The notes beneath the pieces are model-generated. The model searched no databases. It saw only the letters and a list, made by a program, of their open reading frames with translations, and was not told where the DNA came from. From the IMG/VR virus record IMGVR_UViG_3300024268_000040: 20,843 nucleotides of DNA. One strand, given 5' to 3'. Both the position numbers and the translations under genes were made by a program. Source of the DNA: a virus. Its lineage: Duplodnaviria > Heunggongvirae > Uroviricota > Caudoviricetes. Positions 1-19,000 of this stretch are shown one piece after another. The stretch's first letter is position 1. Every line of letters starts with the position of its first letter.

Positions 1-3000
1 AACCTGTATCTTCAGCAGTAATCTCTCGATTTAAGTATTTATCAGAAGTACCACCATAGTTGGCATTACAACGAATCTGTAATTGAGAAACTGCGCCCTC
101 ATAAGCATAAGTATCTCCCAACCATTTACTATCAATATAATTAAATCTATTTCTCAAGAATAAATCTCGATGTAATTGACGACTACCCTATAAACAATAG
201 AAGCGCTTACCCTCATCTTTAGATATAGTGCCACTAGTATTAATGTAACCACTAAAAGTAGGAGCAATATATTTCCAATATTGATCAACATTAATAATAT
301 TAACGGGACGATGACCCATCATAGCGTAAGATCCACTTACATTGGCATCATAGTCATAATAACCTTTTAATTTTTCATATTTTAAGCCATTCTTGCGAAT
401 ATCTTGATAGTAAGATTTTGCAGTATCTAAGAAACATTTTTCAAAATTATACCACAATACACTACCTGCGGTAGAGAAAATACCACCTTCGGTATTAACA
501 ATAGGAGATGGTTCGACATCATATTCCCAAGAAGGTACACCTGAATTATTAACACCTAATTGAGTATCAATATCGTAGAAGATAGGATACCAGATATAAT
601 TACCACCGACCTCTTGAGGTCCCCATGTAGCCAACATCATATTCTTACCACGAGAGTCATATAATAGTAACATTTCAGTCATAATAAAATAGATTGCACA
701 ATATTCCTAATCAAACCATTTATCAAATTCATTAGCAAACTTGGCTAAACGATATTCAGCACTGTCTGTCGTATAAGTCTAACCACCAGCAGTATAAGGT
801 TCAATAGGTTCATTGGTTGGTGCCAAAGAATTGGTAGATTCTAACCACTCAGCCACTTTACGTAGGTTATCATATTTACTCAATAAGAAAGTGTTAATTT
901 CAGTCTAAGTTTTATTAGCAAAATCATTTTTCTTATCCAGAGCGTCATCAATATCATCTTCATCAACGTGATAACGATATTCAAAATCATTTAATACAGC
1001 CAATTTACCCTCATCATCTACTTCATCAAAATTAGTGACTGTAAATGATGTGCGGCCGCCTTGGTTATTTAGTAGCTCCCAGCATTCAGCAACATCTTTA
1101 AAAGTTTTGCCTTCAACATAAGGATGAGCAGTTTCATCTTCAAATCCAATAACATTATTACAACCTTTATCAAGATTATAATTGTAACGACCAATAAATT
1201 CATAGCTGCCATCTGCTTTCTTTTGGAAAACAATCATTGGGAAACCATAAACCGTAGTGCGGCGATCAGTTACATCAATATCAGGATCATAATCTTGCAA
1301 AGGATGTTTACTATATAAAGTCTTAACAAAACTAGCATAGCCCGTATTATGAGTCATAGAACTTTCCATATAATCGGCTTTCCAAGTAAATGTAGTTTCA
1401 GAGTAATGATTATCCATATAGAATCCTTTATACTCTACTCCTTCATACTCGTTCTTTTCACCGATTTCTTTACCTGCAAGAGGGCCATCAGTATATTTCC
1501 AAGAATTATCATCCTTCTTCTTGAATTTACCTTTATAATTACGACGAGGATAACCTTGAGAAGATGTTCCTTGAACGTCAAACTCAATATTAGTAGCTGT
1601 ATAACTAGGACATCCCATTAAGTATTGCGCACCAGTAATTAATTTATTTTTATAGGCATAATCCAAAGAAGGGTTGACGAAAGTTACATTAACTTTCTTT
1701 TTACCACCTTTAATATAAGGTAATAAATCCTCGGTTTTATCTACACATTCCAACACTGCATAAGCCTATAATGGACTTTCTGGATGTGCATCATTATAAT
1801 CTCTCATCTTAGTATAACTAATTGATGGGATATTATCTTTAAATTCAATAATTTGGTTCATATCATATAGCTCAGCGCTATTTTGATCGGCAATATAATT
1901 ATGAACCACATCAGCGCTTGATAAAGCAGCCTAATAAATACGAACTTTATATAAATCAACATCACAATAATTTGAGTTAATTACTAAAGTTTTTACGCCA
2001 CTAGCAAAAGAATCACTAGTTTTATCATAATTAATAATAGAACTCATAATGCCATTAATATACATATAAATCAAAGGATATTGATTGGTTGCAGCAGCTT
2101 TTTCAGCAACAAAACTTACAGTTAAAATTTCGTCTTCTTTATAACGACCAGAAGCAATAACCTGCTTAGATTTAAAGAAACCTTCTTGAGTTCCTAAGCA
2201 CATGCCAATTTCATTATCATAATAATTGCACCATACACCGTCAGTAGATTTAACAGTTTTAGTAACTTTAACTTCTACAGTATTGCCTTCTGCGTCTTTA
2301 ATTTCCTCAGAAGTAACCTCAATTAAATTTTCATACTTTTGGACATTTCTTAATTTGAATTGAATTTCAAAAGTTAAGTTAGTATCCAAATCACGAGTAT
2401 TCATAACACTAACAGGAATTTCAATGGAAGCACCATTACTAATTCTTAATACTGAATCCCCAGTAGCCAAATCATTAACCCAACCATTGTTATACCAGTT
2501 AAAATTATTAAACTTAACAACAGACTTTGTTCCATCACTACGTTCAAAGAACCAGGTTTGGCGTTCAGTCTCGTTTTCTGAATTACTTCTACCAACAGAA
2601 GTTAGATTTAAATATAAATCACTAGTTAAAATATCTAAATCTCGTAATTCATCTTCTTCTACATACAAAGATACGCTAGCAGAGGTAGTGCCACACATTA
2701 AAGTAAATGTATTTTCGCCCACCTCATAATTGGAAATATTCCAATTTAACCAGGTAGTTTCACTATGAGCGATATTATCCAAGCTAGCAATCTCATTATT
2801 ATTAATCCATCTACGAATTGAAGTACGATCAGGAGATGCTGGATCATAAACCATATATTGGATATTTAGTTTATCATGGTTAGTAATTTTCTCTGGGACA
2901 TTATTAAACCAAATAACAGGAGCATCATTATTAGGTTCCAAAAAGACAATTTGATAAATCAAAGGTTTTGTTGCAATAGTGGTAACACCAGTCTTATAAG

Positions 3001-3946
3001 ATCACTCAGCCTTCAATGTGTAAACACCATGTTTCTTTTTTGGAATAGTTACAGACATAGATTGTTCATTATCTGTTGCAAGTAAATCCTTACAGGCGCT
3101 CTCTTCCAAAACATCATCAATATATACATTTAATCTTTTCTTTACTGTGCCTACTGGAATAAAATGAAAACTCATATCAGAGTTATAGGCATATTTTAAA
3201 GGATTGAAATTAGAACTTTCTTTTAATGCTAATTCAATACAAGAAATTGAACCATATTGTAGTTGATTGGTACCAGAGTTGCTACCAATTGCCTCTACGA
3301 CTAATGTATTCTAACCTTTACCAAGCACACTACCCAGATCAAAATTATGAGTTTCTCCTGAACGGACAGAAAAGGAATAAGTGTTAGATTGTTCTGTTGC
3401 GACATTGGTAACATGATAATTTAAAATTAAAACAGAATCATGTGAAGCACCGACAGAAAAATGTATAAACTATGGCTATTCAAAAATGTAGGTTTGCGCA
3501 TTGGGAGCAGTACCTTCACAAGCCAATTCTACATATTTACCATCGCCAGTGTCTCCACCGCCGCCACCACCAGAACCCCCTCCGCCGCCAGTTCCACTAA
3601 CAGCAATACGACTACATTTCAAAATACCAGCACTTTTATTATAAGAACGAACTTTATAGAAAGTACCATTAGAATTGATAATTAAGTCGTCTTTTTTAGG
3701 AGAAGCGTCTTGATCTTCTAAATCAGCAAAATAAATGATATAACTTAAATCAGTTAAATCTTGACTAACACTTGCGGCAGTTGCATATAGAACAGAAACT
3801 CCACCACCACCAACTGGAATACGCTCACTCGCGGTATCCAAAAACATTTCACCAGTGTCAGTAGCAAAATATAAATTACCTTCAATAATTGCCTATGCTT
3901 GAATAGTATCACGCTTACCCTAAATAGGAATGAAAGGTGTATTCAT
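1..3946 (-). CDS. Gene J: giant virion-associated protein (>1314 aa, runs off left edge) with N-terminal YFATDTG module, Gly linker, beta-rich region, LamG/ConA-like domain and CotH-kinase-like domain; interrupted by one in-frame TGA at 3002-3004
   Basis: ATG at 3944-3946 with SD AAAGGAGA (3956-3963). One frame joins track ORFs 3476-3847, 1931-2962, 905-1756 and 188-682 via 11 TAG (3920, 3893, 3476, 3470, 3311, 1931, 1766, 905, 779, 707, 188). CotH-like motifs: VQGTSSQGYPRRNYKGKF (1523-1576), WKADYMESS, YDSRGKNMML, WYPIFYDIDTQLG (554-592). LamG-like ending: LIYMYING...DVDLYKVRIY. Domain names are from motif recall. Confidence 0.8.
3002..3004 (-). other. Isolated in-frame TGA at codon 315 of gene J (nonsense allele, sequence error or readthrough site)
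   Basis: Minus strand reads GCT GAG TGA TCT TAT AAG (…HGVYTLKAE*SYKTGVTTIATKPLIYQIVF…). The same frame stays open for about 1000 codons downstream, and there is no SD plus start codon after the TGA. Confidence 0.85.
3554..3598 (-). repeat. Gly-rich low-complexity linker (SGTGGGGGSGGGGGG) in gene J
   Basis: Direct translation; plus strand tccaccgccgccaccaccagaaccccctccgccgccagttccact. Confidence 0.9.
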
Positions 3947-3955
3947 ATGAAGTGT

Positions 3956-3963
3956 TCTCCTTT
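3956..3963 (-). promoter_or_regulatory. Shine-Dalgarno site of gene J
   Basis: AAAGGAGA 9 nt upstream of ATG 3946. Confidence 0.8.
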
Positions 3964-3991
3964 CTCTCAAATAATTTTTTTTGTATAAAAG

Positions 3992-4025
3992 AAAAAAGGG
4001 ACGAAAGAGATAACTCTTTCGCCCC
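3992..4025 (-). terminator. Rho-independent terminator between genes I and J
   Basis: Minus strand GGGGCGAAAGAG-TTAT-CTCTTTCGTCCC-TTTTTT: 12-bp stem with one G-U pair, 4-nt loop and U6 tract. Confidence 0.85.
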
Positions 4026-4032
4026 TTAAGCC

Positions 4033-4062
4033 TTTATATTTTATCTCTCATAGAGATTTCAA
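4033..4062 (-). promoter_or_regulatory. Possible sigmaA/sigma70-like promoter (TTGAAA-N18-TATAAA)
   Basis: -35 at 4062-4057 and -10 at 4038-4033. The AT-rich context makes a chance match possible. Confidence 0.25.
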
Positions 4063-4066
4063 TTTT

Positions 4067-4095
4067 TTTATAAATTAATGATTATTTTTTGTCCA
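4067..4095 (-). promoter_or_regulatory. Possible sigmaA/sigma70-like promoter (TGGACA-N17-TATAAA)
   Basis: -35 at 4095-4090 (5/6 match), 17-nt spacer, -10 at 4072-4067 (5/6 match), directly after the gene I stop codon. Confidence 0.4.
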
Positions 4096-4096
4096 A

Positions 4097-6463
4097 TTAA
4101 GTAGCTGGATCAAAACTATCCCAAACCATATTAATGGTCATAGTGTTGCCAGAAGCCTCAATAGTCAAATTAGAAGAAGCAGAAGTCACAGTAATCTGAC
4201 CTAAGTCACCTGCAGTACCATTACCATTCAAAGAAGTTAAGTTAATATTGGCAGAAGCTGTACCAGCAACATCAGCTACACTCAACTTACCCTGCAATTC
4301 TGCCTTATAACCAGACTGAACATGGACCCACTCAATATCAGCAGCGGCCAAAACACCCTCAGTTTCAACAGCGTCTTCTTTAGCAGTGGCAATTAACAAA
4401 TCACCAGCATAGCACTTTACTGCAGCAGTACTAGAATTATTGTCCAAATCCAGATTTAAAGCTAAATTAGATTCAGCAACAACATAAGTGTCACCAATAT
4501 GAGCATCTTTTACTTTTACAGCATCCCACTCATCAGCAGTAGAAATACCATCAATATAAGTTAAAGAATTAGCTGCATTAATTTTTCTTTCAATTTCAGC
4601 ATTTAAATCAGTTCTTAATTGAGTATCAGCAGCTTCGCGATCTTCAATTTCTTTATCAAGATCAGCCTGCTTAGCATAAGTAGAAGCAGCATTCTGCAAA
4701 GCAAGAATATCAGTACCATGAGTCTTAATAGTACCCTCAGCAGTACTTAAACGAGATTCTACATTAGCATTAGTAGTAGCCTGATCAGAATCCACTTTCT
4801 TCAAAGCATCAATTTCATCATTGATATCATTGATTGCGCCCTCATTGGCAGCGGCTTTAGCAGCAGCACCATCAGCAACACCACTTACTGCGCTAATCTC
4901 ATTAGCATTTGCAAGAGTCTTTTCATCGACTTCTTTAATAGCACCATAAACAGTAGAACCAGCAGTGCCCTTAGTGCCAATATTTTGATTAATTAAATCA
5001 ATAGCAGCAGCATTGTTAGCAGTCTCTGCATATAAACCAGAAGCAGCAGTGCTTCCAGACTTTGGAGCACCAACGGCAGTTTCTAAATTACCAACCTTAG
5101 TACTCAAACCATTAACAGTACTTTGATCAGCCTTGCCGCTTAAAGTGTTATTAATAGTAACAATATCAGCCTTAGCTTGATTTGCAACAGTCTCAGTAGC
5201 CTTCAAACGGCCCTTAATACTATCAGCTTTTTCATCATTACCAATAGCATTTTCATTAGCTTGTACTCGGCCTTCTAAAGCTTCGATATCAGCATCAACT
5301 AAAGTGTCTTTTGCTTGTAATTGAGCAATATCATATTTTACTGTACCTGCGGTATTGGCATCACCAATCGCACCATTAGCAGCAGCTGCAGAATTGGCAG
5401 CATTTAAAATATCTTGTCTAATAGTTGGTAATTCATCATTAATTGCTTTTACATCAGCTTTAATCTCGGTATCAGCATTCTCTAACTTTTGAATTCTAGT
5501 TTCATGATCAGTCTTGGCAGTTTCCAAAGGAGTCAAACGACTCTTTACGCCAGCCAAGCCATCTTCTCCCTGCAAAGCCTCAATAGCTGCATTAGTAGTG
5601 GTATCAGCAGCCTTTAACTTAACAATATCCTCAGCATTAGTGTTTGCTTTATTTTCTACTGCAGTAGTTCTAGAAGCCAAGCCATCAATGCGACTATTAG
5701 CAGTAGCGATGCTACCGTTTTCACCATCAATAGCGTCCAAACGAGTCTCATGGTCGTCTACACTATCCTGTAAGCTATTTAACCAAGGATAAACAGCAGC
5801 CTCACCTTCAGCACGAGTGCCCATGTTGGTTTCTAATGTAGTAACACGACCCTCATGATCTAAGATATCAGTAGCAGCATCAGTTTTCCAAGACTCTAAA
5901 GCTTCAATACGGTCAACCAAACCACCTTCATCATCTAAGCGGCCAACTAAAGTATTTAACTGCTCAGTCAAAGAGGCGCCTTCGCCACTTCCTAGACCTG
6001 TTAATTCATTTAATGCATCGACAGCATCTTGCAAATCTCTCAACCATACAAAAGCAGCTTTTTCGTCAGTTTCCTTGGTACCAACTTCGCCGCGCAAACC
6101 ACTAATAGCATTAGCATTAGCAGTAATGTTGCCAGACAATTCAGCAGATTTAGCAGTAAATTCTGCTGCAGTAACGTTAATAACCAAGAACTTATCTGTA
6201 GAATCATCCCAACGGATTAAAGCACCCTGATCCGCAATGTAATAAATTACATCAGTAGAATAAGGTGGCTTAGTTGCTTCAGCAAAAGCAGTAGTACTTT
6301 CATAGAACTGAACAACACCTTGAATTCTCTTAGGAGCTTTTTCTGCGTCTACGCCTAAATATAAAGAGCCCTCATCTTTAGTGAAATAAATTGCACCAAC
6401 TTCAGAAGTAGTCATTTTGACTAGATTTTCATGAGAACCCCATTTAAAATTCAAATTAGCCAT
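4097..6463 (-). CDS. Gene I: 788-aa long coiled-coil fibre-like virion protein
   Basis: Intact in either code (no TAG). SD AAAGGAGAG at 6471-6479, ends TAA. N-terminal FKWG…GAIYFTKDEGSLYLG module, then about 500 aa of Ala-rich heptads (RIEALE, RVTTLE, RLDAID, RLTPLE, RIQKLE) and a short beta-rich C-terminus. Confidence 0.85.
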   Translation of the reverse strand: MANLNFKWGSHENLVKMTTSEVGAIYFTKDEGSLYLGVDAEKAPKRIQGVVQFYESTTAFAEATKPPYSTDVIYYIADQGALIRWDDSTDKFLVINVTAAEFTAKSAELSGNITANANAISGLRGEVGTKETDEKAAFVWLRDLQDAVDALNELTGLGSGEGASLTEQLNTLVGRLDDEGGLVDRIEALESWKTDAATDILDHEGRVTTLETNMGTRAEGEAAVYPWLNSLQDSVDDHETRLDAIDGENGSIATANSRIDGLASRTTAVENKANTNAEDIVKLKAADTTTNAAIEALQGEDGLAGVKSRLTPLETAKTDHETRIQKLENADTEIKADVKAINDELPTIRQDILNAANSAAAANGAIGDANTAGTVKYDIAQLQAKDTLVDADIEALEGRVQANENAIGNDEKADSIKGRLKATETVANQAKADIVTINNTLSGKADQSTVNGLSTKVGNLETAVGAPKSGSTAASGLYAETANNAAAIDLINQNIGTKGTAGSTVYGAIKEVDEKTLANANEISAVSGVADGAAAKAAANEGAINDINDEIDALKKVDSDQATTNANVESRLSTAEGTIKTHGTDILALQNAASTYAKQADLDKEIEDREAADTQLRTDLNAEIERKINAANSLTYIDGISTADEWDAVKVKDAHIGDTYVVAESNLALNLDLDNNSSTAAVKCYAGDLLIATAKEDAVETEGVLAAADIEWVHVQSGYKAELQGKLSVADVAGTASANINLTSLNGNGTAGDLGQITVTSASSNLTIEASGNTMTINMVWDSFDPAT

Positions 6464-6483
6464 TATATTACTCTCCTTTTAAA

Positions 6484-7842
6484 TTAATTAGTTAATCCGT
6501 GCCAAGTTAAACGATCTTCAATTGCTGTAAATCTATTATTAGCAGCGGATACGTGATCATTAATAGAAGTTTCTAAAGCACTTACTTTACTGCTCACCGC
6601 AGTGACAGTAGAAGCATCAGCTTTAAGTGCTAAAACCTCATCAAGACCAGTAACTTTTGAATAATCAATTGCCTTAATAGACAAATGACCATCTTCAACA
6701 TTTAATTGATTAGTGTCAACGGTTTTAATAAACAAAGCATCTAATAGCTTATTATACATTTCATCAGTTAAATTGTTTTCAGAAAGTCCAGGGGTGGTAG
6801 CAGCATTTTTATTTAACCAATCCTCCAAGCCTTGAACATTCTCAACATTAACTGTACCAGAAATACCAACATTACCAGTCTCTTCATCAATAACTAGCTT
6901 TGCTAATTTTCCCTAATCAGTAGGACTTAATAAAGTCCAACCTTCGATCTTATCAACCTTACTATTTAAAGTATCTTGTAACCCAGTAACTTTATTGATA
7001 GTAAAAGGTTTTAAAGTTAATTGTCTATCAATACCTTCTTCACTAACAACTTCAAAATCATTAGATACAGAATTGATAATATTTTTTTCTGCATTTACAT
7101 TAACAGCTTCTAATTTTTCAGCTTCAGCAGCTGTAATTAAACGTTCACCATCCGCTTTATCAACCTTTTTGTTTAAGTCACTCTTCTTAGCATAATCAGT
7201 TAAATCGACTTCCCAAGAACCAACTTTTTCAACCACTTGAGTACCAGCAATGGTGACAACCATATACTCATCATACTTATCAGTATCAAAAATTTCATCG
7301 GCAGGTACCATAAAAATATATTGTTCAGCATCAGCATTTTCAGCCATATACTGTTCAATATCTGCTACACTACCAACAATCTTTCTCTTTAAATGAGCAG
7401 CTGCCGCAATCTTCGCGTCGGTTTCAGCCTTAGTATAAGCATCAACAGGAGCTTTCCAAGAGATTGAGCCATCAGATGCAACAGTTAATACCGTACCTGC
7501 GGCCGCTCCTTCTAATCCCTTTAAACTTAGTTCGCCAGTTTCAGAATCAACTACAAAAGCTTTATCATCAATAACTAAAACGAACTCTTCTACAGACTCC
7601 CCCGCAATAGGAGCTAAACTATTATCGGGCTGAATTACATATAAAGTAGCTTTATTATCTTCAACTACTACTAAAGTCTGACCATAATAATAAACAGACT
7701 CAGAGCTTCCAACCTCTTTTGCCAATGCTGCAGCACTAAGCGCAGCATCATAACTTTCAAAATAGCTTCGTGCATCAAGAGGGAAAGCGGAAGTAGGATT
7801 AAAAGCTACAGAGCGATTGCCCTTACCAAAGTTCATAGCCAT
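6484..7842 (-). CDS. Gene H: 452-aa tail-fibre-like protein with phage-tail-repeat (PTR-like) motifs
   Basis: Joins track ORFs 6913-7842 and 6484-6828 through one TAG (6913). Perfect SD TAAGGAGGT at 7851-7859, ends TAA. Motifs FPLDARSYF…YYYGQ, HLKRKIV…DKYDEY…VDLTDYAKK, KVDK, KVTGLQD. Confidence 0.85.
6616..6999 (-). repeat. Three degenerate PTR-like repeats in gene H
   Basis: INKVTGLQDTLNSKVDK (6949-6999), VNVENVQGLEDWLNK (about 6811-6855), SKVTGLDEVLALKAD (about 6616-6660). Confidence 0.65.
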
Positions 7843-7850
7843 AAATCTTT

Positions 7851-7859
7851 ACCTCCTTA
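7851..7859 (-). promoter_or_regulatory. Shine-Dalgarno site of gene H
   Basis: TAAGGAGGT, a 9-nt perfect complement of the 16S anti-SD, 8 nt upstream of ATG 7842. Confidence 0.9.
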
Positions 7860-9320
7860 TTAAATAGTAGCAGTAAATACATTTGCTGCATCGTAAGGAT
7901 TTGCAAAATCCATTACATAAACCTTATAATCAATAGCGCTGTGATGATCTGCGCCTTCAACTGCAATAATTTGAGGTTCGCCAAAACCAGATACAATATT
8001 CGCGTTAGAGTCGTTCTTATCCAAAACACTTGTTAAATCTTGAATAGTTGCTTCATAAGCAATAACAACTCTCATTGTTCCTACTGGAATATTAACAGTC
8101 ATAACTGAACCTGCAGTTACATCGGCATTAGTTTTATTTAAACCTCTGATAATATCAGAAGTTAAAGTATTCTTTTCAGTCAAAGTTCCATAGAAAGCAT
8201 TGCGATAACCTTTTACTGCATCAGTAACTAAATCAATAGTGCCGGCCGCAATCTTTTTACTTTCTACTGGATTTCCTAAATTGGAAACAGGAACAGCACC
8301 CTCAGTATAGCTAACAGTAGCACTGATTTTATACTCAGTAGTATCATCTACAATAAAAGTAGATAATTTACCAGATGCCACATCATTAGATCCACCATTG
8401 GTGTCGGTTACAGCATATGTTGCAGTAATACCTGTGTCAGGGCCATAAGTATATTTGCCTTTACTAAAAGTAATAGCATAACTTGGCTCATAGGAAGTTC
8501 CAGCCTCAACACTAGCAGCACTCTACAAAGCAATAGATGCACTAGGTTTAGTAGCGGATGGATTCTGCTCAGCTGCGAATAAGCCTGCAAAAAATTCTTT
8601 CAAATTTTTGCCTGCTGCTTTTACAGTGGTACTACCAGAAGAAGGAATGGTTACAGTGCCTAATGCTTTAGTGAAAATAAAATCTTCATCAAAGTAGACA
8701 TTTTCAGCATTATAATTACCATCCATCGCCGCCCATTCTAAACCGTCATAAACGTAGGCAGTATGTTGATAATTACCTTCGACAATAATATCTTTAACGA
8801 TTGCTATGTCGCCAATTGCCAAAGTCTTTCCAGTAGTGTTGCTACCAATTAATTCAATATGATCAACATTATCAACATTCTCTAACTCAAACACTTGAGC
8901 TGTAATGGCCACCCATTTACCATCACTACGTAAATAGCGATTTACATCTCCGGCGGCGGGGGCTGGAACAAGACCAGCTTGTCCATCAGAAGTTGAATTA
9001 GCTCCAATCATAACGCTAATGGCTTCTGCTAAAGGCTTATTTACCCAAGCGCCATTAGTGCCTGCGGAAGGATCATAAATCAATAGATCTTTATTAGCAA
9101 GACCTGCATTGATAACAACGTCGCTTAATTTAGCTAATGAAGTAGCACCAATAGATTCATCATTGGCACCGCTTGAAATTAACTTAGAACCTAAATACAA
9201 ATCAGCTGTTGAAGCATCATTATCATAAATAAAATACAAAGTATCTAATTCAAGCTGATCTTTTGGTAATGCTTTAAAAGCTTCAGTTGTACCTCGTCTA
9301 AATTTTACATAATTAGCCAA
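7860..9320 (-). CDS. Gene G: 486-aa fibre/appendage-like virion protein
   Basis: TTG start with SD AAGGGAG (9329-9335). Joins track ORFs 8523-9320 and 7860-8381 via one TAG (8523), ends TAA. N-terminal KFRRGT…LYF…LYLG module, fibre motifs LAKLSDVVI…LIYD…WVN and GLVPAPAAG…YLRSDGKW, and a beta-rich C-terminal half. Confidence 0.85.
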
Positions 9321-9380
9321 AATAATCTCTCCCTTCTTTTCAAAATTATTATATATAAACTTCCCTCAAAAAGAAAGAAA

Positions 9381-10196
9381 TTATACTAAAGAATTAACTT
9401 TTTCTTCAAGAGTTTTTACTTGCTCTTGTAAGGATTTAATATTTTCAGATAATAAACCAGTGGTTTGAACTAAGCCCTAAATACTAGCAGACAACGTACC
9501 AATTTGAGCTTCAGTATAATCTTTTAGATTTAAAATTGACTATGTTAATGTAATATCTTCATCTTCTAAAAGGATTCGAAATGAATCTACATTGCCAATA
9601 ATTTCACTAATTGATTCATCACTATCATCAGTTACTAAACTAAAATCCCCAATGGTATCATCTAAAGTATTAACCTAATCATTTAATTTATTAATACTTT
9701 GAGCATTGTCTTTAATTTCTTTATTCATTGTACTAGTAACTTCTTCAAGCTCATCTACAGCAGTTTCCAAATTATCAATATCACTAATAATATCAATAAC
9801 GGGCATGCGATAATAAACTGCTTCATTAGAAGCGGGTAAAATATGTCCCGCTTCATCATATTGAATAATAGGAACTTTAAAATAATCTCCAGAAGCCAAT
9901 TCAGTAACTGAAGATGGCGCTGGAGGAGATTCACTTTTTTCAATCCCCTAAATAATAGTTGGGGTTATAGTATTTGGTAAACTATGCCAAATTTTACAAC
10001 CTTCATTATCAGGCTAAATTTGAATCCATCGGTTACCACTATCAATACCAAAGACACCTGTGCGGCTATCGGCCTCGAGAGAGCCATTAGATGGCTTATT
10101 AGTTAAAAATTGTTTTGAATCCCAACCGGAATTTTTAAATAAAATTTTTGCAAAAGATTGCGCAACTTGATAATATATAGAACCATAAAAACTCAT
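9381..10196 (-). CDS. Gene F: 271-aa hypothetical structural-module protein with acidic/coiled-coil C-terminal half
   Basis: ATG 10196 with SD GGAGGT (10203-10208), ATGA-overlapped with the gene E stop. Joins 10014-10196 and 9675-9899 through 5 TAG (10014, 9948, 9675, 9540, 9477), ends TAA 9381. Confidence 0.8.
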
Positions 10197-10543
10197 ACAT
10201 ATACCTCCGGTCCATCATACACTATATCCACGATGAGTCTATGATTAATGCTTTCACTATTATTATAAGTTTTAGTTAATACCTTATCATCAAATCTCAA
10301 ACCGGTAATACGACCAACACCTTCTAAATCAAGTTCATAAATACCTGTATTACCAATAGTAATAGGGTTGTTTCCTCCATTTAAATAGAAAACAACCCCC
10401 GGTTCGCCCTATATACCAAGATGAGATACTGCTCCATAGTTATAAAATAAATTATTTGCCCAATCTCGTTCAGCCAATGAGCCAGATGGATAATTATTTT
10501 CATTTCCAGGACCATGATAGCGGAACTACATCATTCGTTTCAT
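10193..10543 (-). CDS. Gene E: 116-aa small beta-rich protein, missing from the ORF track
   Basis: ATG 10543 with SD TAAGGAGG (10552-10559). Two TAG (10526, 10409) hide it under code 11. Translation MKRMMQFRYHGPGN…SHLGIQGEPGVVFYLN…IGNTGIYELDL…LIVDIVYDGPEVYV, ending TGA that overlaps the gene F ATG. Confidence 0.85.
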
Positions 10544-10556
10544 ATCTCATCCCTCC

Positions 10557-13004
10557 TTATATAATATTCTCTGCGGCCTTTGTCGCAGTAATAGACATTG
10601 TACCATTATAAGATAATGGTAAAGTAATTTTACTTACAATATAATCTCCATCCAATCCTGTATCATCATCATGTAAATAAATACGAGTATTTGGTTGAAG
10701 ATAATAAATTGGAATAGCTGTAATTGTAGCACTTTCAATACAATAACTGTGCTGATATAATAACTCATCTAATCGCTCTTTTGCGGATTTACCTTGCGCG
10801 CTAATTGAAAACATACCATCAATCTCAGCGCATTGAATATAGCGAAAACCAGGTAAAGCGCCCGTCTCACCGGGAGCCGCATAAATAACATTAGGAGTTT
10901 CTCTAAAGTAAATGGACTTTACATTAGAGTCATTGATTGCTTTTGGCCGTGCGCCAATGTTCTTTACATCGTATTTAGATAATTCACTAGATTTCTTTTT
11001 ATCTTCATGTGAACCATCTAAAAAATCAAACCAAAAGTTTAAAGTTTCAGGTTTTTTATATACGGCCTTGTTCCAATATCTATGATCTCCGCTCTAATAA
11101 TAATTTTCATTTCTGTCCTCAATTAGTTGCTCTACTTTTATAGTAATTTTATCTAATTCATAATTTAGATTTTCTAAACGATCTTTTTCTCTAAAATATA
11201 AATCGTTTAAAATTCCCATTGCGATATAAGGATCAGAAACATTAATAAACAAAGAAGCATACTGTGGATACTAATTTTTAAATTGAATTAATATCTAATT
11301 GGCTTCTGTTTGATCATCATCAGATAATTCGTTATTAATTGCAGCTAAATAGTTTTCTAGTCCTCCGATACGATTATCGGTATTTGGATTTTCTTCTCCA
11401 AAAACAATCACAGTCAAAGTGTCTACCTATTGTTGTAAATTAGTCTATGTGTTTAAAGCCTCTTGATATTGTTCATCCAATTCTGGATAATATAGCTATC
11501 TCCAAAAGCCTTGTAAGTCAATATAATAAATTTCATATCCTGTGCGGCCAGTCGGATATAAATCTCCATTCGCTTTGGCTACTCGCAATTCAAAGTCGCT
11601 TAAAAAATTATATTTATAATAATCAAGTGCCATTTGATAAATTACTTCACGCCAATCTGATTCATCTGCTGTAATTGTAGAAGATTCCTATCCTTTTACA
11701 TTTACTTTATAATTATTATTATAAGTTTGTAACTCTTTATTATTATCTTCTACAAAAATTTTTGTATATTGTTTTGGTTTGCGATCAATAGCATAACGAA
11801 TATGTACTGGAATTTTTGCTCCACTCACACTTTCACGTTCACCCCAAATTGAATAATCATTTTTAAGATTTAATAAATTGGGATTATTATTAAATGCTGT
11901 AATTAACTCACTACCACTAAACATATATGAATGTGTTGAAGCGAGCGCTAGAGCCTGGCTCATAGGTGCATTTGAAGTTGTGGCCGCAGGTGACCACATT
12001 GTAGAAATAAAGGACTATTTTTTCTAAAAAATAAATCTTCCATCTATATCATAAAAATATTCAAATTCAACTAACATATTTTTAATTTTATCTAATACGC
12101 TAGTTAAACTTTCACCTACATTCGCAATTAAGTCTCCTGCATATACTAAATCAGTTTCTCTATAGCCCGCAGTCTAACCATACTCAACTTTTGCTACATA
12201 CCACTCTTGACCGTCCATTTCAATAATTACATTAGTTAAAGTTCCTGTAAATGGATCAACTAACATTTCTAATTCCTCTGGCCGCAAACGATCGAGAGTC
12301 TTCGTCTCTCCGGTTTTTTGGACCCTACAGATTTTTTTTCCATCAAGGGTAGCATTACGATAAGACTAATCATGAATACTTCTATACAAATACATTGGAA
12401 TATCATATCTATATTCTAGCAATTCTAAACCGTATGTATCTAAATCATTAATAATGATATTATGTAATGGTTCTCCACCATATACATGAACTGCATTACG
12501 AATAATATCTTGGATAGGAATCTTTCTAAGAGTCCATACACCTTCAGCATTTTCTTCCTCAATACAGCCAAAATCAATTGAAGATTCTAATGTACCTCCA
12601 ATTTCACCATTTAATAAAGCCATTTTATCTTTGCCTTGAATGGTTATAGAAAAATTATTCGTACTACGAGAAGTATTAAAAACGGTAATTAAAAAAATAC
12701 CTTGATTAAACCAGATAATTTTAGGATACTTAGTATCAATAGTATTTTCAACACCAACTTCTAACTTAAATTTAGTATTTAAACCCCAATAAAAATCATT
12801 ATATTTAAAATCTTGTGCCACAATAGTTAGAGAACAGGTACGACGGACCGCAGAGGATCCATCAATATTAATAGACCCCTGCGTAACACGTCCTTCAATA
12901 GTTTCAATGGGTAGCTCTTGAAAAGTAAGAGCAGTAATACGAGCATAAATAATTTTATTTTTTGATTTATCTAATTTTAATAAAAAATCTTTATCATATA
13001 GCAT
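10557..13004 (-). CDS. Gene D: 815-aa DUF5048-like tail-tip/baseplate-hub-type structural protein
   Basis: Joins 12366-13004, 11688-11999 and 10557-10814 via 11 TAG, ends TAA. Motifs GRVTQGSINIDGSSAVRRTCSL, VLDKIKNMLVEFEYFYDIDGRFIFQKK and ITAIPIYYLQPNTRI…DYIVSKITLPL resemble phage hub/Tal-like proteins of Bacillota phages (recalled, not searched). Confidence 0.75.
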
Positions 13005-15546
13005 TTATGCTCCCCCTTCCTATAGTAGCTTCATATGTCGAAATCAAAGCTCGATAATATTTTTCAAATAAACTATAATTCTCAGGGTCTTTTTCCCAAT
13101 CTTGTCTCCACTATAAAAGTTTACCTGTTTCAAAAGTATAATATTTTGTATTTAATTGATATACAATATCTACAAATAAAGCATTACCTAAATACATATA
13201 TTTAATATCGGATAAATTGGTTAAAATCATACGACCTGCAGTTCTAATACTACTATATTGACCAGAAATTAAACTACCATCCTCCTTAGTCTTGTTATTG
13301 GTAATATCAAATGTGTAATCTAAATCTAATGAAGAACCAATTAATTTTCTAGTCCATCCATCATAATATTTATCATCACATTTTACAATAACATCGATAG
13401 TTGGATGATATTCTTTGCTACCATCCCAAAAACGATATTTACCACCTTCAATAGCAGTAACTGATAATACAGTAATAACAGGTCGTTCCTGAACTTTAAG
13501 ATAATAAACATTACCAATGCTTTCTCTTAATGGAGAAGCAAGATTAAACACTGAATTATAAATACCTTTATCTAAATGAGCCTCAATCTCATCTCGATTC
13601 TAACCAATCCATGTATCAATTTTGTCTTCAATTTTAACATCTTCAATGATACTGAAAGGCTCAATAGTAGCTTCAGTATATTGCGCATAAGTTAATACAG
13701 CGCTACTCCAAGAGGCAGAAGACTAAGCTCTAGCCTATAAAAATACTAGCGGATTTTCAGCTAACAAATATTTATCAAATTCATAAATACCAGTTACACC
13801 CAAATCAGCTTCTTTAATATTATCATTTTGTAGTTGATAATAAAAACGAATATTTGGCTACCCGATAATCGTAGCCATAACAGCGTTACCTCTCCAAATA
13901 CCAAACTATGAACTTGGAATATCACTTAAAGTAACTTGAATAAACTCTAAATCACGAGTTTCTAATTTTTCTTCCATAAGCATACCATAAGCACGTAAAT
14001 TTTCAAAAGTACAATCTGCAATTTCATAAGCTGTGCTTGTAAAAGTATGAAGCATACGACTTAAAGTATCATTAGGACTCATTGAAGTATTCATTAAACG
14101 CACAATAAAACTGCCCTCGCCAGGAGACCGGAAAAGTTTAGGTTTACCATTAGTTAACCATTCTAAGACTTCCATTTTAAATTCTCGTTCCTTATGAAAA
14201 TTATCTGCGCTCAAATCAGTATGGCTACTAGTTAAATCACCGCGATACTCTTCTGAATTAATAAATGGAGTATTTACTCGATAAGGCTCTATAGTTTGAA
14301 GCCCCTCAATAAATTCGTTATTCTCATCCGTTAATACACTAATAAGACCTGAAATTGGAAATTCTTTATATTTTACATTGCCATTGCGGAAAAAGAAAGG
14401 ATACTTTCCGCCAATAGTATCCATTTTAGATTCTAGAATAGTATTTTTAAAAGAAGATACTTTTGGATTGTAGCGAATACGCAATTGGCGTTTACCATCA
14501 CTTAAATACATATCTTCAAAATCAACGTCTAATATATCAGTTTCAATACGCTTAGAATAAATGCCTGCCGCATTAAAAGCTTGTAGTGCATATTTATAAG
14601 ATACTCCTTGAGATACACAGTAATCTCGACATAAATACCTACGGGACTAACTATCCCAATTAGCCAAAACAAATTCAGTTAACTAATACCAACTTTGATA
14701 GTTATCTTCATTAGAAGCACGAAGCAATAAAAATTGTCCATTAATAAATTTGCGGTCTTCTGGTTTTGTCGTGCTATGAGGCTCAATTGAAAGCTCCACG
14801 TATGCGCCGGCCGCATCATTTCTAGCAACAAATTGATAATATTTTAAAATATCTGTATCAACTGCTTGATTATCAGTGATACGATATTTTTGGCTTTCTT
14901 CTACTAATCCATTAATTGTTTTGACACAGTATTGAATAGTAAAATCTCCATCACATCCGTATCTTGTTGTCCAGGTATCCTATGATTTATCAGTAAATTC
15001 ATCAGTAGAAGAATTATGCAATAATTCTCCACTAGTCTACACAGGAGTATCTTTTCCTAATTCAAATATATTAAACCAATAAGAATAAACTTTTTCTGAT
15101 GGGTCTAATGCATTCTCATAAACTCCCGTATAATTATAAATATTTGTATTAATTTTAATACCACCCTCTAAATCTTTTATAATTAAAGAGGGCTATGAAG
15201 TATATTTAAAAGTTCCTACTGAAGAATAGAAACCATCATTATCATTTTCACCATCCATATTGACATATGCTAATTGCACTTTATAATACTAACCAATTGA
15301 AAAATCAGATTGATTAATTGGAAATAAAGCAATCCATTGGTTATTCTTATAATACCACTAATCCACTTCACAAGTTGCAGTAGTAATTTGAACATTAGTC
15401 TATACAGATTTAATAATCGCTCTCATTTTTACCACATCACCTTTAGCAACAGAGCGATTCATTTGAAAGGGAATGCGTAATGTATCTCCCTTTTGAGCTA
15501 CAATAACGCCATCAATAAGTGGCGGATTTAATTTTACAACTGCCAT
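12994..15546 (-). CDS. Gene C: 850-aa structural protein, probable FN3/Ig-like domains plus distal-tail (Dit)-like domain
   Basis: ATG 15546 with SD AAAGGAGA (15553-15560). 14 in-frame TAG; joins 13906-14511 and 13111-13551; ends TGA 12994, overlapping the gene D start by 11 nt. Motifs RDYCVSQGVSYKYALQAFN and KYKEFPISGLIS…LTNGKPKLFRSPGEG…FTSTAYEI. The Dit/FN3 labels are inference. Confidence 0.75.
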
Positions 15547-15575
15547 TTTAGTTCTCCTTTCTCACCTTATAATAA

Positions 15576-15605
15576 AGTAAGGTGTCAGATTTCTGACACC
15601 TTACT
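15576..15605 (-). terminator. Perfect 14-bp inverted repeat, probable terminator/attenuator after gene B
   Basis: Minus strand AGTAAGGTGTCAGA-AA-TCTGACACCTTACT followed by TTATT (imperfect U tract), 7 nt after the gene B stop. Confidence 0.6.
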
Positions 15606-15612
15606 ACATATA

Positions 15613-15981
15613 TTAGTCAATCATAAACATTAAAGCTTCCATTTGAGCAGTAGTCAGAGTCAAATCATCACTTAAAGCATCGACACTAATCTTAGAAATA
15701 TTAACATCCTGCTCTAAATTAAACAAATCCTCTAATTCCTTGCTAGCCTCAGCAAGCTTATCATTAGGAATCTGATATTGCTCGCCAGACTCATCTAATA
15801 CACCATAAGTCTGAGCAATTTCTAAACGAGCCTTTTCAATATCCTGTGCCAAACTCAGAAGAGTATTCTTATTCTTCTGAAGATAGAAGTTAATCTTAAT
15901 AGGTAACTTCTGTTCGCCATCCTGGAATGCATCCATTAACTGACGAGTATAAGTATAAATTTCATTATTTGTCATTTTCAT
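15613..15981 (-). CDS. Gene B: 122-aa acidic helical protein, DUF1617-like phage tail-region protein
   Basis: ATG with SD AAAGGAGA (15992-15999), TAA stop, no TAG. The pattern KLPIKINFYLQKNK…IEKARLEIAQTYG…ELEDLFNLEQDVNI resembles small proteins that follow tail-fibre genes in Bacillota phages (recalled). Confidence 0.7.
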   Translation of the reverse strand: MKMTNNEIYTYTRQLMDAFQDGEQKLPIKINFYLQKNKNTLLSLAQDIEKARLEIAQTYGVLDESGEQYQIPNDKLAEASKELEDLFNLEQDVNISKISVDALSDDLTLTTAQMEALMFMID

Positions 15982-16032: not shown

Positions 16033-19000
16033 TTATACATAAGAATAACCAGTATAAATAGTAACCTGTTCGAGAGTGCCACTACTATTCTACGCAGCAT
16101 ATAATATCCCAGTACTACTTTTATATAAAGTAATAGAATGTCTATGATAAGTAGATTGCCAAGATGGCCCACTGTCATTGGCACCAGTACCATTACCTAT
16201 CCAAGCGTAACCACTAGATCCTTTAGATGTTGGAGCATATGGATAAGTGGATCCCTATGATATTGTTTTCCACTCTAATCCAGTAGCATCACTATTAGTT
16301 GCTAACACTTGACCTGCAGATCCTACAGAAATTGCAACAGGTATACCATCAGAAAAGTATACCGGCCAATTAGTACTGCCAACACTATATTTTGTACCAG
16401 AACCATTGGCTAAAGTTAAAGCACTATTTGCAATTGCTACTTTATTATCTCCAATTAAAGTAAATCCTCCGCCAAACTCAGCAATATAATTTGGCAATGT
16501 ATATGTTACATTACCCACACGGATATGAGTATCTTCTGGAATTTCTAAATAGTGATAAATAAGAGTAGAACATTCTGTATTACCTACTCCCAATTGTACT
16601 TTATTTGTAGCCAAAGTAATTGTCGAACCATAAAACCACATTCCGCCACCAGAATCTTTGTTTACCAAAAGATAGGTATCTGCATCAGAAAAATATAAAG
16701 TGCCTGAAAAATAGCTTTTACCATTAACTCTTAAATCATAATTATTATCTGGCTCAATTCCAATTCCTAAATTTCCTGTAATATAAGTGTCTCCACTCAC
16801 TTTTAATACATAATCATCAACTGGATCAGTACCAATACCAGTATGACCACCAATTCGAGTTTTTCCATTAACTCGTAAATCCCATGTATCATTTGGAGCA
16901 ATACCAATTCCTACGTGTCCAGTTAAATAAGATTTTCCATTTACATATAAATGATAATCATTATTATAACTACTCTAACCTATTTTTAAATGACCAGAAA
17001 TCCAACCTTCACCACTTAATTCAAATTTACCTGTAGTTTTAACAGCTAATGTACCATGAACCGTTAAAGAAGTTAATTCTGCATTAGTAGCAGTTAATTT
17101 GCCTCCTGAAGTAACATTAAATGTCTCTCCTGCTTTGATACTAGAACCTGAAATATTAGTACCAGAAATAGTACCACCAGAAATGGCTGAACCACTAATA
17201 GCTCCAGTACTACCATTTAAAATAACGCTATTATTAGCGCTCTATAAATTACCATCTGAAGTAACTTTCCAATTGCCGATAGAACCAGTGCCACTAACAT
17301 TAAGATTACCACTAATATTTATATTACCAGATAAATCAGCATTAGTAAATTTAGCATTACCAGCCGCATCAATAGACCAGGGAGATGTCGATCCTCCCTA
17401 AATACTACCATCCCATTTAATTTTAAAAGCATTACCAATTTCAATTGGTATTCCATTAGGATTATTCGTAATGGATAAAGTATTAGTACCACTATCTCCA
17501 GTAAAAGTAATTAAGCCTGCTCCATCATTATCATATGCATCAATAATAATATTACTTGAACGTAACTCAAAATCAAATGCATGAATGTGACCAGTACTTA
17601 AATCAATTTTCATACCAGCACCGGGTACGCCATTTGCTCCGATTGGATCAAAATCATCAGATTTTAAATAATATCCATCAGAACCAATATAAATTAAATT
17701 ATTTCCACTCGTATTATTTTTTACAACTAAAAATGCAGTAGCTCCATCACTAGAATCAATCATTACATTTTTAGAAGTTAATTTAAAATTAAAAGCATCA
17801 ATATAGCCTTTAACTAAATCAAAATAAGTACCTTCACCTCGATCATTAGCAACTCCGTCAGTAATCCAATAGGTACCAGACCGATAATTTCGAGACTATA
17901 AGAAATAATTATTTAATCCAATAGAAATCAATGGTTTTAATTGCCAAGCACCTTCAATACCACTAGAATCCTTATTCCAAGGAACTTCAATTAAAAAATA
18001 CTAATTAGTATTAGTAGATCCGTTCGTTCCAGTAGCACTTAATAAAATATGATTTGCATATCTACTAGCAATAGTATTATTAATAGCTTCTGTCGTGCCA
18101 TCTTCTTTGTAAACAGTTTCATAATACTTATATCTATTCCCATCAGAACCTAAACTTGCACCACGAATATCAATATATCCGTCATTCAAATCAATTTTCA
18201 TGCCTGCGGGAATATCATAAATAATAGCGCCATCTTGTTCACTACGATCTAACCGAGTCTATTCATAAGAAGCACTTGTAATCGCACCTTTATTGCCATC
18301 GAATTTAATACGACCACGACCTGCTTTACCAATAAAAGCAGTGCCATCAATATTAAATCCAAAACTCTAGGCACCATCATTAAAACCATATACACCATAT
18401 CCAGTTTTTGCGTCAAGATCAATACCAGCATTACCGCCAATATCACCCATCAACACACCTTGAAATGTATTATTTTCAGTTTTCCGTCCAGCACCTACCA
18501 TTGATGATAATATTGTACCATTTTTTTTGTCAATTGTCAAGCTACCGTCCCAATCATTGAGTACAGAAGATGCAAAACGATTCTATGTAATTACAATAGG
18601 CTGAGACCATAATAAATCATTTGTAATTGCAGAATATGCTTTTACAACAGCATAACAATCAATATTATCCAAATATAATGAAGCTGGAGTTAAACCACCC
18701 GCATCATTAATAATTGGCATATAATTACGATAAAACTAATACTCTTTATTGTTTTCATCTGTAAATTGTACACCATTTGCGTTATAATATTCAATATCCC
18801 AATTAACATCAATTTGATCATTGGGATTATAAGTCTTAGATCCTAAAGTTATTTTTTTCATTGCAAATAACTTATAAGGATTATCAAACATACTTCTATT
18901 ATCAATAGTACCAAAACTATTATAGACAATAGAAGTTGGTCCAGAAATATAATAATCTCCTGCAGCCGCTGGTATTGCACGCACTGTCTCTAGTGTTACC

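Follow-up and report, generated by a model that had tools for sequence, protein, structure and literature searches.

The reassigned stop codon TAG, which is read as Gln in this gut-phage DNA, is depleted along a gradient among genes and not in two classes, and its avoidance in two genes, B and I, reflects selection against TAG and not base composition. We propose, with a probability of roughly 0.65, that TAG, although a valid Gln codon, is costly and is removed by selection in proportion to the translation load of each gene. The window, by which we mean the whole stretch of DNA analysed (20,843 nt), is part of a 64-kb contig that appears to be a fragment.

A gene array that reads TAG as Gln

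Once TAG is translated as Gln, the minus strand of the window becomes one gene array. Coding density is 0.97 with 47 open reading frames (ORFs), versus 0.69 with 88 ORFs under translation table 11, as long contiguous genes on the same strand are restored when TAG is a sense codon. The genes and associated hairpins are listed below, with Gln codons given as CAA/CAG/TAG and the G-ending share calculated over Lys, Glu, Leu and Arg codons.

Gene A, 16033..20843+, minus strand: 1976 aa, 5' end beyond the window, located after a 3122-aa tape-measure gene; 19/4/26 for the whole gene, with 18 TAG inside the window; TAG-rich; no PHROG match
Gene B, 15613..15981, minus strand: 122 aa, small, acidic and helical, phrog_1401 (unknown function); 2/8/0, CAG-rich and without TAG; G-ending share 0.52
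Hairpin, 15576..15605, minus strand: 13 bp, directly 3' of the stop of B; dG about -21 kcal/mol
Gene C, 12994..15546, minus strand: 850 aa, tail-tip or baseplate-region protein; 23/1/14, TAG-rich
Gene D, 10557..13004, minus strand: 815 aa, N-terminus matching a tail-protein family (phrog_32343, phrog_1887 'tail protein'); 21/4/11, TAG-rich
Gene E, 10193..10543, minus strand: 116 aa; both of its two Gln codons are TAG
Gene F, 9381..10196, minus strand: 271 aa, coiled-coil protein; 10/0/5
Gene G, 7860..9320, minus strand: 486 aa, Ig/PKD-like beta-sandwich at residues 256-373; 5/2/1, TAG-poor
Gene H, 6484..7842, minus strand: 452 aa; 6/3/1, TAG-poor
Gene I, 4097..6463, minus strand: 788 aa, Ala/Thr/Glu-rich coiled-coil fibre-like protein that closes the C-to-I unit; 11/11/0, without TAG; G-ending share 0.40
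Intrinsic terminator, 3996..4027, minus strand: 3' of gene I, 14-bp stem followed by a T-run; dG about -23 kcal/mol
Gene J/K, 2..3970, minus strand: one 2233-aa gene with LRR_5 repeats; 53/5/14

J and K had been described as separate genes. They are a single gene in the assembly and in relatives, and the TGA that splits them (3002-3004) is exclusive to the window copy. The fold search for G recovered the generic Ig/PKD-like domain alone, a common fold (Z up to 8), and orthologs of I gave faint coiled-coil Pfam matches. The structure model of B is confident (pLDDT 90); it has no match among solved structures (Foldseek, VIA-align), and among predicted viral structures it matches only uncharacterised phage proteins, at a TM of about 0.8. 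Given that B has no assigned function, its copy number cannot be argued from its identity.

Conserved hairpins are located 3' of I, B, the capsid gene and the probable tail-tube gene. The terminator 3' of I is kept in all eight relatives checked, with variable stem sequences. The hairpin after B occurs, with differing stem sequences, in relatives L004, L005, L006 and L019 and is absent from L009, L011 and L013. B belongs to a unit A-B and I to the unit C-to-I; each unit is delimited by a hairpin, and the other genes of both are TAG-rich.

The assignment of TAG to Gln, made in the original prediction from codon usage, is supported by alignment: TAG sites correspond mainly to CAA, CAG or TAG in relatives, including those that use the standard code. 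Compared with a 98% identical twin, the TAG sites of the window face 27 TAG, 2 CAA, 1 CAG and 5 gaps; in more distant and standard-code relatives the commonest partners are CAA and CAG. The claim that TAG and CAG are interchangeable is likewise borne out by swaps at orthologous sites, as five of the seven TAGs in an 86%-identical ortholog of I face CAG here, and TAG sites turn over freely among close relatives. A tRNA scan of the window and the 64-kb contig detected no tRNA gene. The 21 tRNA genes of a complete 188-kb relative include a suppressor with anticodon CUA; in a 171-kb relative the tRNA scan found none.

Graded avoidance of TAG

Our recount of Gln codons in C, D, I and B, and of the single TAG in G and in H, was identical to the counts first reported. 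The non-random split noted there extends to the 42 ORFs of the 64-kb contig, for which a single genome-wide TAG fraction is ruled out (chi-square 123, df 41, p = 3.6e-10; Monte Carlo p < 5e-5). Fisher tests of TAG share against C and D combined gave p = 6e-4 for I and p = 0.03 for B. For G and H together the value is 0.08 in this genome alone and 5e-14 when pooled over relatives, the sequences of which are not phylogenetically independent.

The sharpest test is the synonymous first-position C/T choice, compared between Gln (C/T)AG and Leu (C/T)TG codons of the same genes. In I and B combined, none of the 19 (C/T)AG codons is TAG, versus 28 TTG among 31 (C/T)TG codons (p = 5e-11). The TAG-rich tail genes (A, C, D, E, F, J/K and the tape-measure gene, which has 59 TAGs) use TAG at 189/229 and TTG at 175/193 of the corresponding codons. 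Their TAG/(TAG+CAG) of 0.83 can be set against neutral comparators from the same genes, namely 0.91 for TTG/(TTG+CTG) and 0.87 for T/(T+C) at two-fold sites.

TAG share can be predicted from general codon bias. The covariate was the G-ending fraction of non-Gln codons (Lys, Glu, Leu, Arg) per gene, so that 'optimal' codons are defined internally from phage genes and not from the host tRNA pool. Logistic regression of TAG share on this fraction was highly significant (likelihood-ratio p = 8e-20; Spearman -0.73), and the residual heterogeneity was not (p = 0.06), with no two-class structure remaining. The expected numbers of TAG are 1.9 for I and 0.4 for B, compared with zero observed in each. 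The G-ending scale is topped by the capsid gene (0.77), the gene in the scaffold position (0.75) and the probable tail-tube gene (0.67), identities that rest on annotation searches and gene order. All three have 0 TAG and 0 CAA, and they share with I and B a general preference for G-ending codons; the bias is strongest in those proteins for which the highest copy numbers are expected. Two genes lie above the regression prediction for TAG: a 241-aa gene immediately 5' of the probable tail-tube gene, in which 11 of 17 Gln codons are TAG (p = 0.006), and gene E. Other predictors were uninformative, as C-ending pyrimidine bias added nothing as a second covariate (p = 0.6), Shine-Dalgarno pairing energy did not correlate with TAG share (rho 0.14), and evolutionary rate, represented by percent identities to L019 (B 90, C 86, D 84, G 88, H 78), does not track it. 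The covariate is not universal, since in certain relatives a preference for CAG in the capsid gene and B is not accompanied by a general G-ending bias.

The TAG pattern is kept across about 15 related lineages. Pooled ortholog TAG shares are.26 for C,.32 for D,.36 for E and.23 for F, versus.12 for B,.08 for G (7/90 Gln codons),.06 for H (8/135) and.07 for I. Over 85 ortholog cells, from relatives that are not phylogenetically independent, TAG share and codon bias are again negatively correlated (Spearman -0.53). I orthologs carry 1 (at 98% identity), 2 or 7 TAGs in some relatives, and the L023 ortholog, with 7 TAG and 2 CAG, is the only one with a weak G-ending bias (0.23). Orthologs of B carry 1 or 4 TAGs in some relatives; in standard-code relatives B is already 78% CAG, versus 23-28% in neighbouring genes. 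Capsid-gene orthologs have no TAG in any recoded relative checked, and in the heaviest recoder among the relatives none of the 43 Gln codons of four head genes is TAG.

A synonymous C-to-T change, under the strong AT pressure acting on the genome, converts CAG into new TAG codons. In the TAG-rich tail genes this change is nearly neutral, so that CAG is drained and TAG accumulates. The mutation is purged from B and I, from the capsid, scaffold and probable tail-tube genes and, to a weaker degree, from G and H, and there CAG survives. Purging in these genes, combined with draining elsewhere, produces the apparently reciprocal use of CAG and TAG. The cost may lie in competition between a phage suppressor tRNA and host release factor 1, which would slow decoding and truncate products. 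From codon bias alone, we infer a high demand for B, I, G and H. Selection for high expression, one of the causes suggested in the original prediction, thus gains support, as the G-ending preference is common to I, B and the capsid, scaffold-position and probable tail-tube genes and predicts TAG share genome-wide.

Alternative explanations

Alternatively, TAG may act as a temporal gate. B, I and the head genes would be kept free of TAG for translation in the host code before the suppressor tRNA builds up, and genes with TAG would await the code switch. Borges et al. and Peters et al. have published this model for recoded phages, and it is consistent with the strict absence of TAG from the capsid, scaffold and neighbouring head genes in every recoded relative. 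We consider it unlikely here. A single TAG suffices to block host-code translation, yet some are present in I and B orthologs and in G and H, and only the capsid and scaffold genes lack in-frame TAG in relatives as well; B, I, G and H do not. B and I also sit in hairpin-delimited units that are otherwise TAG-rich, it is not obvious what a fibre-like protein or a small tail-module protein would do ahead of its partners, and a continuum fits the TAG data. The proposal that a discrete set of genes is kept translatable in the host code is not supported, given the TAGs in I and B orthologs, the one each in G and H, and the lack of residual two-class structure.

A different role would be that of an active attenuator, with TAG positively selected in low-copy genes, where it would lower yield and thereby fix the proportions of subunits made from a single operon. 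In its favour, TAG density is highest in presumed low-copy proteins (59 in the tape measure, 26 in A, 14 in C, 11 in D), both the 241-aa gene and E have more TAG than the regression predicts, and TAG-enriched gene families have been reported by Borges et al. This seems improbable, as the 0.83 TAG/(TAG+CAG) of TAG-rich genes does not exceed the neutral 0.87 to 0.91, giving no sign of positive selection, and the sites turn over freely between close relatives. It is similarly doubtful that TAG is a dosage dial, in which each TAG would cost a fixed fraction of product via release factor 1 and the number of TAGs would be selected to set the ratio of low- to high-copy virion proteins per transcript; the extreme case would be the 241-aa gene (11/17 Gln codons TAG) adjoining the TAG-free probable tail-tube gene. 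The earlier idea that TAG tunes subunit stoichiometry finds no support, since TAG-rich genes are at or slightly below the neutral TAG expectation.

Base composition alone, with B and I in GC-richer patches or with another mutational history and so receiving fewer C-to-T changes in the absence of selection, would be in line with the overall GC of I (0.39 vs 0.31) and the GC3 of B (0.33 vs 0.19). It is very improbable, because Leu first positions in I and B are 90-96% T and two-fold pyrimidine-ending sites are 84% T, as in neighbouring genes, and the higher GC of I is due to its Ala and Gly codons (its GC3 is just 0.22).

I and J/K form a swapped cassette that is exchanged only among recoded relatives, as indicated by identities discordant with the flanks. 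In L019, I is 48% and J/K 36% identical with flanks at 78-97%; in L023 the values are 86% and 85% with flanks at 30-69%; and only residues 1-93 of I are shared with the closest backbone relative. Relatives of I were reached via the protein database; a pattern search of viral contigs for them found none, and a nucleotide search of the phage collection gave one 77-base match only. B is syntenic in every relative spanning its position, and its 89% identity to relative G001 is that of the conserved backbone (capsid protein 89%), where neighbouring genes are 35-53% identical. Although such exchange might suggest that B and I were recently imported from standard-code phages, with too little time for TAG gain, we reject this proposal as the least credible: every context found for I homologs at 34 to 98% identity is TAG-recoded, J/K of the same cassette holds 14 TAGs, eight of nine lineages have a TAG-poor I, and the nearest homologs of the syntenic B (90%, 89% and 72%) are in recoded phages, standard-code ones being 48-49% identical.

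Implications and comparison with known systems

A graded TAG pattern is already known in outline. Gene-family TAG bias and the origin of TAG from CAG have been published. The window allows the behaviour of a reassigned stop codon, in a phage able to read it, to be gauged cleanly from internal data: TAG is approximately a neutral synonymous variant of CAG in most late genes and is strongly purged in the most heavily biased ones. Such strong purging implies that TAG is truly costly to decode. It also implies that ordinary codon selection, and not a timing switch alone, accounts for part of the uneven distribution of TAG in recoded phages. TAG-free genes within recoded modules should not be read as standard-code islands or recent transfers. 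The comparison of TAG/(TAG+CAG) with TTG/(TTG+CTG) is a simple test that can be used on any recoded genome.

In code 15 gut phages, Borges et al. (bioRxiv 10.1101/2021.08.26.457843) and Peters et al. (PMC9523058) found TAG to be concentrated in structural genes. They compared TAG with CAG and CAA per gene family, treated stop codons as the least efficient codons, described recoded stops as enriched or depleted by selection in particular families, and stressed an early/late switch as well as families enriched in TAG, among them lysis genes and a tail tube family. The phage studied here shares with theirs the reading of TAG as Gln and gene-family-specific TAG use. It differs in that depletion occurs within the late module, is graded and follows a general codon-bias axis, and in that the probable tail-tube gene lacks TAG, whereas their tail tube family is enriched in it.

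The capsid protein is 47.7% identical to that of Phass-1. phAss-1 and the proposed Phassvirus group (PMC10607447) are large TAG-recoded phages with TAG in terminase and tape-measure genes and with suppressor tRNA-CUA genes, and standard-code and recoded members occur in one clade. The same mix is seen among the relatives here (L011-L013 versus the others). That study records TAG-containing ORFs; the per-gene choice of Gln codon and its cause are addressed here instead. For the Lak megaphages, Crisci et al. (PMC8346664) inferred that in-frame TAG derives from CAG by synonymous substitution, based on the terminase gene only and without comparing genes, whereas the CAG/TAG exchange is seen directly at aligned sites here. 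Reassigned stop codons are also depleted in highly expressed genes of Blastocrithidia (PMC12153298). That system has a eukaryotic nuclear code in which all three stops are reassigned and expression was measured, whereas ours is a phage in a standard-code host, with expression inferred only.

Gene order and glutamine codon use

When TAG is read as glutamine (Gln), a single late-gene array emerges on the window's minus strand, A to I in that order and then J/K (gene starts are from simple ORF calling). The window is 14454-35296 of a 64,138-bp phage contig, whose coding density rises from 0.69 to 0.97 once TAG is taken as sense. Ahead of the window genes the contig carries terminase and portal genes, a gene for a 515-aa protein, a gene in the scaffold position and the capsid gene (369 aa), then connector genes, a gene for a probable tail tube (331 aa, 'virion structural protein') and the tape-measure gene (3122 aa). 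The contig's capsid protein shares 47.7% identity with its Phage Phass-1 counterpart and also matches proteins annotated as major capsid in large siphoviruses of Bacillus, placing the phage in a group that includes standard-code and TAG-recoded members (PMC10607447).

Relatives (loci or contigs labelled L, phage genomes labelled G) comprise twelve viral contigs reached via gene B and eleven metagenome loci reached from a graded set of I homologs (full length; 98, 86, 74, 49, 48, 38, 35 and 34% identity). The order A-B-C-D-E-F-G-H-I-JK is kept across them. The window differs from the assembly at three bases only (window 2993, 3001 and 3003; C/A, A/T and C/A), which generate an in-frame TGA at 3002-3004 (minus strand) separating 'J' from 'K'. 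At this position TTA is found in the assembly and in the 98-99% identical twin L022, giving one LRR_5 protein of 2233 aa; all relatives have the same arrangement.

Gln codons in the late genes (window coordinates, minus strand) and TAG share of Gln codons pooled over recoded relatives, which exclude this genome and its 98% twin and are not phylogenetically independent
A, from 16033: pooled share.18
B, 15613-15981: CAA 2, CAG 8, TAG 0; pooled share.12
C, 12994-15546: CAA 23, CAG 1, TAG 14; pooled share.26
D, 10557-13004: CAA 21, CAG 4, TAG 11; pooled share.32
E, 10193-10543: pooled share.36
F, 9381-10196: pooled share.23
G, 7860-9320: CAA 5, CAG 2, TAG 1; pooled share.08
H, 6484-7842: CAA 6, CAG 3, TAG 1; pooled share.06
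I, 4097-6463: CAA 11, CAG 11, TAG 0; pooled share.07

The original prediction described reciprocal use of CAG and TAG between genes, and our recount of C, D, I, B, G and H is identical to its figures. The uneven use is confirmed and statistically solid, as a single binomial cannot describe TAG use among Gln codons across the genome (chi-square 123, df 41, p = 3.6e-10). Tested against C and D together within this genome, I gives Fisher p = 6e-4 and B p = 0.03, and G with H just p = 0.08.

The two codons are indeed interchangeable, as swaps at orthologous sites are seen in relatives. The L023 ortholog of I (86% identical) contains seven TAGs, five opposite CAG in the window and two opposite CAA, and one site in I is TAG in the 98% twin and CAG in the window. 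Across all genes, the partners of TAG sites in relatives are mainly TAG, CAA or CAG, including in the standard-code relatives L011-L013, where in-frame TAG is essentially absent. CAG has been proposed as the source of in-frame TAG in Lak phages (PMC8346664).

Composition, selection and the gradient of TAG use

CTG versus TTG in leucine codons, a synonymous first-position C/T difference, provides a neutral comparator for CAG versus TAG.

TAG use and neutral comparators by gene class
18 TAG-rich genes: TAG/(TAG+CAG) 189/229 = 0.83; TTG/(TTG+CTG) 175/193 = 0.91; T at two-fold pyrimidine sites 0.87
I and B: TAG/(TAG+CAG) 0/19; TTG/(TTG+CTG) 28/31 = 0.90; T at two-fold pyrimidine sites 0.84
17 TAG-poor genes: TAG/(TAG+CAG) 9/108 = 0.08; TTG/(TTG+CTG) 0.78; T at two-fold pyrimidine sites 0.75

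In the TAG-rich genes, TAG is a near-neutral alternative to CAG, with at most slight avoidance. I and B depart from the leucine comparator (Fisher p = 5e-11); their leucine T share is as in their neighbours while TAG is wholly missing, indicating that mutation pressure is equal and that TAG itself is purged from these two genes. The TAG-rich genes contain 40 CAG codons versus 82 expected from other G-ending codons (about half), a deficit that fits an ongoing drain from CAG to TAG. Such a drain accounts for the reciprocal appearance of the counts.

TAG use across genes is graded rather than split into two classes. I and B favour G-ending codons beyond Gln, as the G-ending share over Lys, Glu, Leu (TTR) and Arg (AGR) is 40% in I and 52% in B. 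Values in A, C and D are lower, at 15-20%; the probable tail-tube, scaffold and capsid genes, which contain neither TAG nor CAA, reach 67-77%. As sole covariate, this share predicts how much TAG each of the 42 genes uses (likelihood-ratio p = 8e-20, Spearman -0.73), and the residual heterogeneity among them is not significant (Monte Carlo p = 0.06). The fit expects 1.9 TAGs in I and 0.4 in B, versus none seen in either, so neither gene is an outlier; G, H, the portal and the terminase are intermediate.

Only one gene lies clearly above the regression (p = 0.006), a 241-aa gene outside the window (genome 48921-49646, L003:4783-5508; phrog_4051, function unassigned). TAG makes up 11 of its 17 Gln codons, the top share among sizeable genes, and CAG none; its immediate downstream neighbour is the probable tail-tube gene, which lacks TAG.

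Relatives, transfer and cassette exchange

Eight of nine I orthologs are TAG-poor and CAG-rich. The exception is that of L023 (CAA 12, CAG 2, TAG 7), where the G-ending bias of I has dropped from about 0.40 to 0.23. Orthologs are not always free of TAG, those of I carrying 1, 2 or 7 and those of B 1 or 4; from the capsid gene, TAG is absent in all recoded relatives, the heaviest recoder included. CAG already accounts for 78% in B of standard-code relatives versus 23-28% in A, C and D, and the bias of B thus predates, or is independent of, recoding.

The capsid gene and B favour CAG (75-78%) even with almost no G-ending bias in Lys, Glu, Leu and Arg codons (about 0.2) in the standard-code relatives L030 and L011-L013 and the heavy recoder L029, so that a CAG preference confined to Gln exists separately from the general bias. 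One syntenic clade covers the standard code (L011-L013) and light (L017), medium (this genome) and heavy recoding (L014, L023); tail genes of the heavy recoders have nearly lost CAG, and TAG has appeared in B, G, H and I. From standard code to heavy recoding (L011-L013 versus L004-L010 and L014-L027), the clade offers a natural series on the spread of a recoded codon.

Recent import of B and I from standard-code phages had been proposed as an alternative, and is rejected. Against G001, identity is 70-90% along the backbone (89% for the capsid protein) and 23-53% across the tail-tip module, with B, mid-module, at 89%. B is at backbone identity and is a conserved core gene amid variable genes, not an import. 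I and JK appear to form one cassette exchanged among relatives: in L019 they are 48% and 36% identical, against 78-97% for the flanks, in L023 the pattern is reversed, with cassette identity above that of the flanks, and in the closest backbone relative the common part of I is the first 93 residues only. All contexts found for I are recoded, JK of the same cassette carries 14 TAGs, and I is TAG-poor in whichever backbone it resides. Neither a single binomial nor import from code-11 phages describes the data. Across window 2-6463 (I and JK), identity to L019, L023 and G001 is discordant with both flanks, as is typical of host-range modules.

Gene products, tRNAs and a proposed role of translation demand

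The 788-aa product of I, most likely a fibre, is a coiled-coil protein rich in Ala, Thr and Glu whose N-terminus is conserved, and G contains an Ig/PKD-like domain. A confident model predicts B to be a small helical protein, with a fold that is common among phages (numerous uncharacterised proteins match at TM about 0.8); we found no solved structure related to it. Strong hairpins (dG -20 to -29 kcal/mol) occur 3' of the capsid, probable tail-tube, tape-measure, B, I and JK genes, and divide the late region into short units.

Hairpins after I and B
Window 3996-4027, minus strand: hairpin directly after I, with T-run, in 8 of 8 relatives checked (homologous gaps, L017-L027), stems differing in sequence
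Window 15576-15605, minus strand: hairpin directly after B, kept in four relatives (L004-L006, L019)

At both sites, pairing is retained as stem sequences vary between relatives. B and I, like the capsid and probable tail-tube genes, are each the final gene ahead of a hairpin, a position that is compatible with, but not proof of, higher or more stable expression. Ribosome-binding-site strength does not track TAG share.

No tRNA genes were found on the 64,138-bp contig, and ARAGORN detected none on the 171-kb TAG-recoded relative G003 (L037-L045; 87% complete). The complete 188-kb relative G005 (L046) encodes 21 tRNAs within about 9 kb and a tmRNA-like gene. Most of these tRNAs, Gln-UUG included, have U at position 34, reading A-ending codons; a CUA suppressor is present and Gln-CUG is absent from the 21. 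We infer that TAG decoding would rely on a phage suppressor tRNA in competition with host release factor 1, which would make its decoding the slowest and leakiest among Gln codons. Its removal by selection may scale with translation demand, and drift under AT pressure would fill the remaining genes.

High expression, itself deduced, is the best supported of the interpretations offered in the original prediction. A set comprising B and I, and largely G and H, kept translatable in the host code is not supported, nor is tuning of stoichiometry by TAG.

The phenomenon is a further example of one known in outline from the literature. Stop codons have been described as the least efficient codons, enriched or depleted by gene family (Borges et al., bioRxiv 10.1101/2021.08.26.457843), and reassigned stops of Blastocrithidia are depleted in highly expressed genes (PMC12153298). 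Our analysis adds the neutral-comparator test (TAG/CAG versus TTG/CTG) and extends the pattern past head genes to a tail-fibre-like gene (I) and a small core gene (B).
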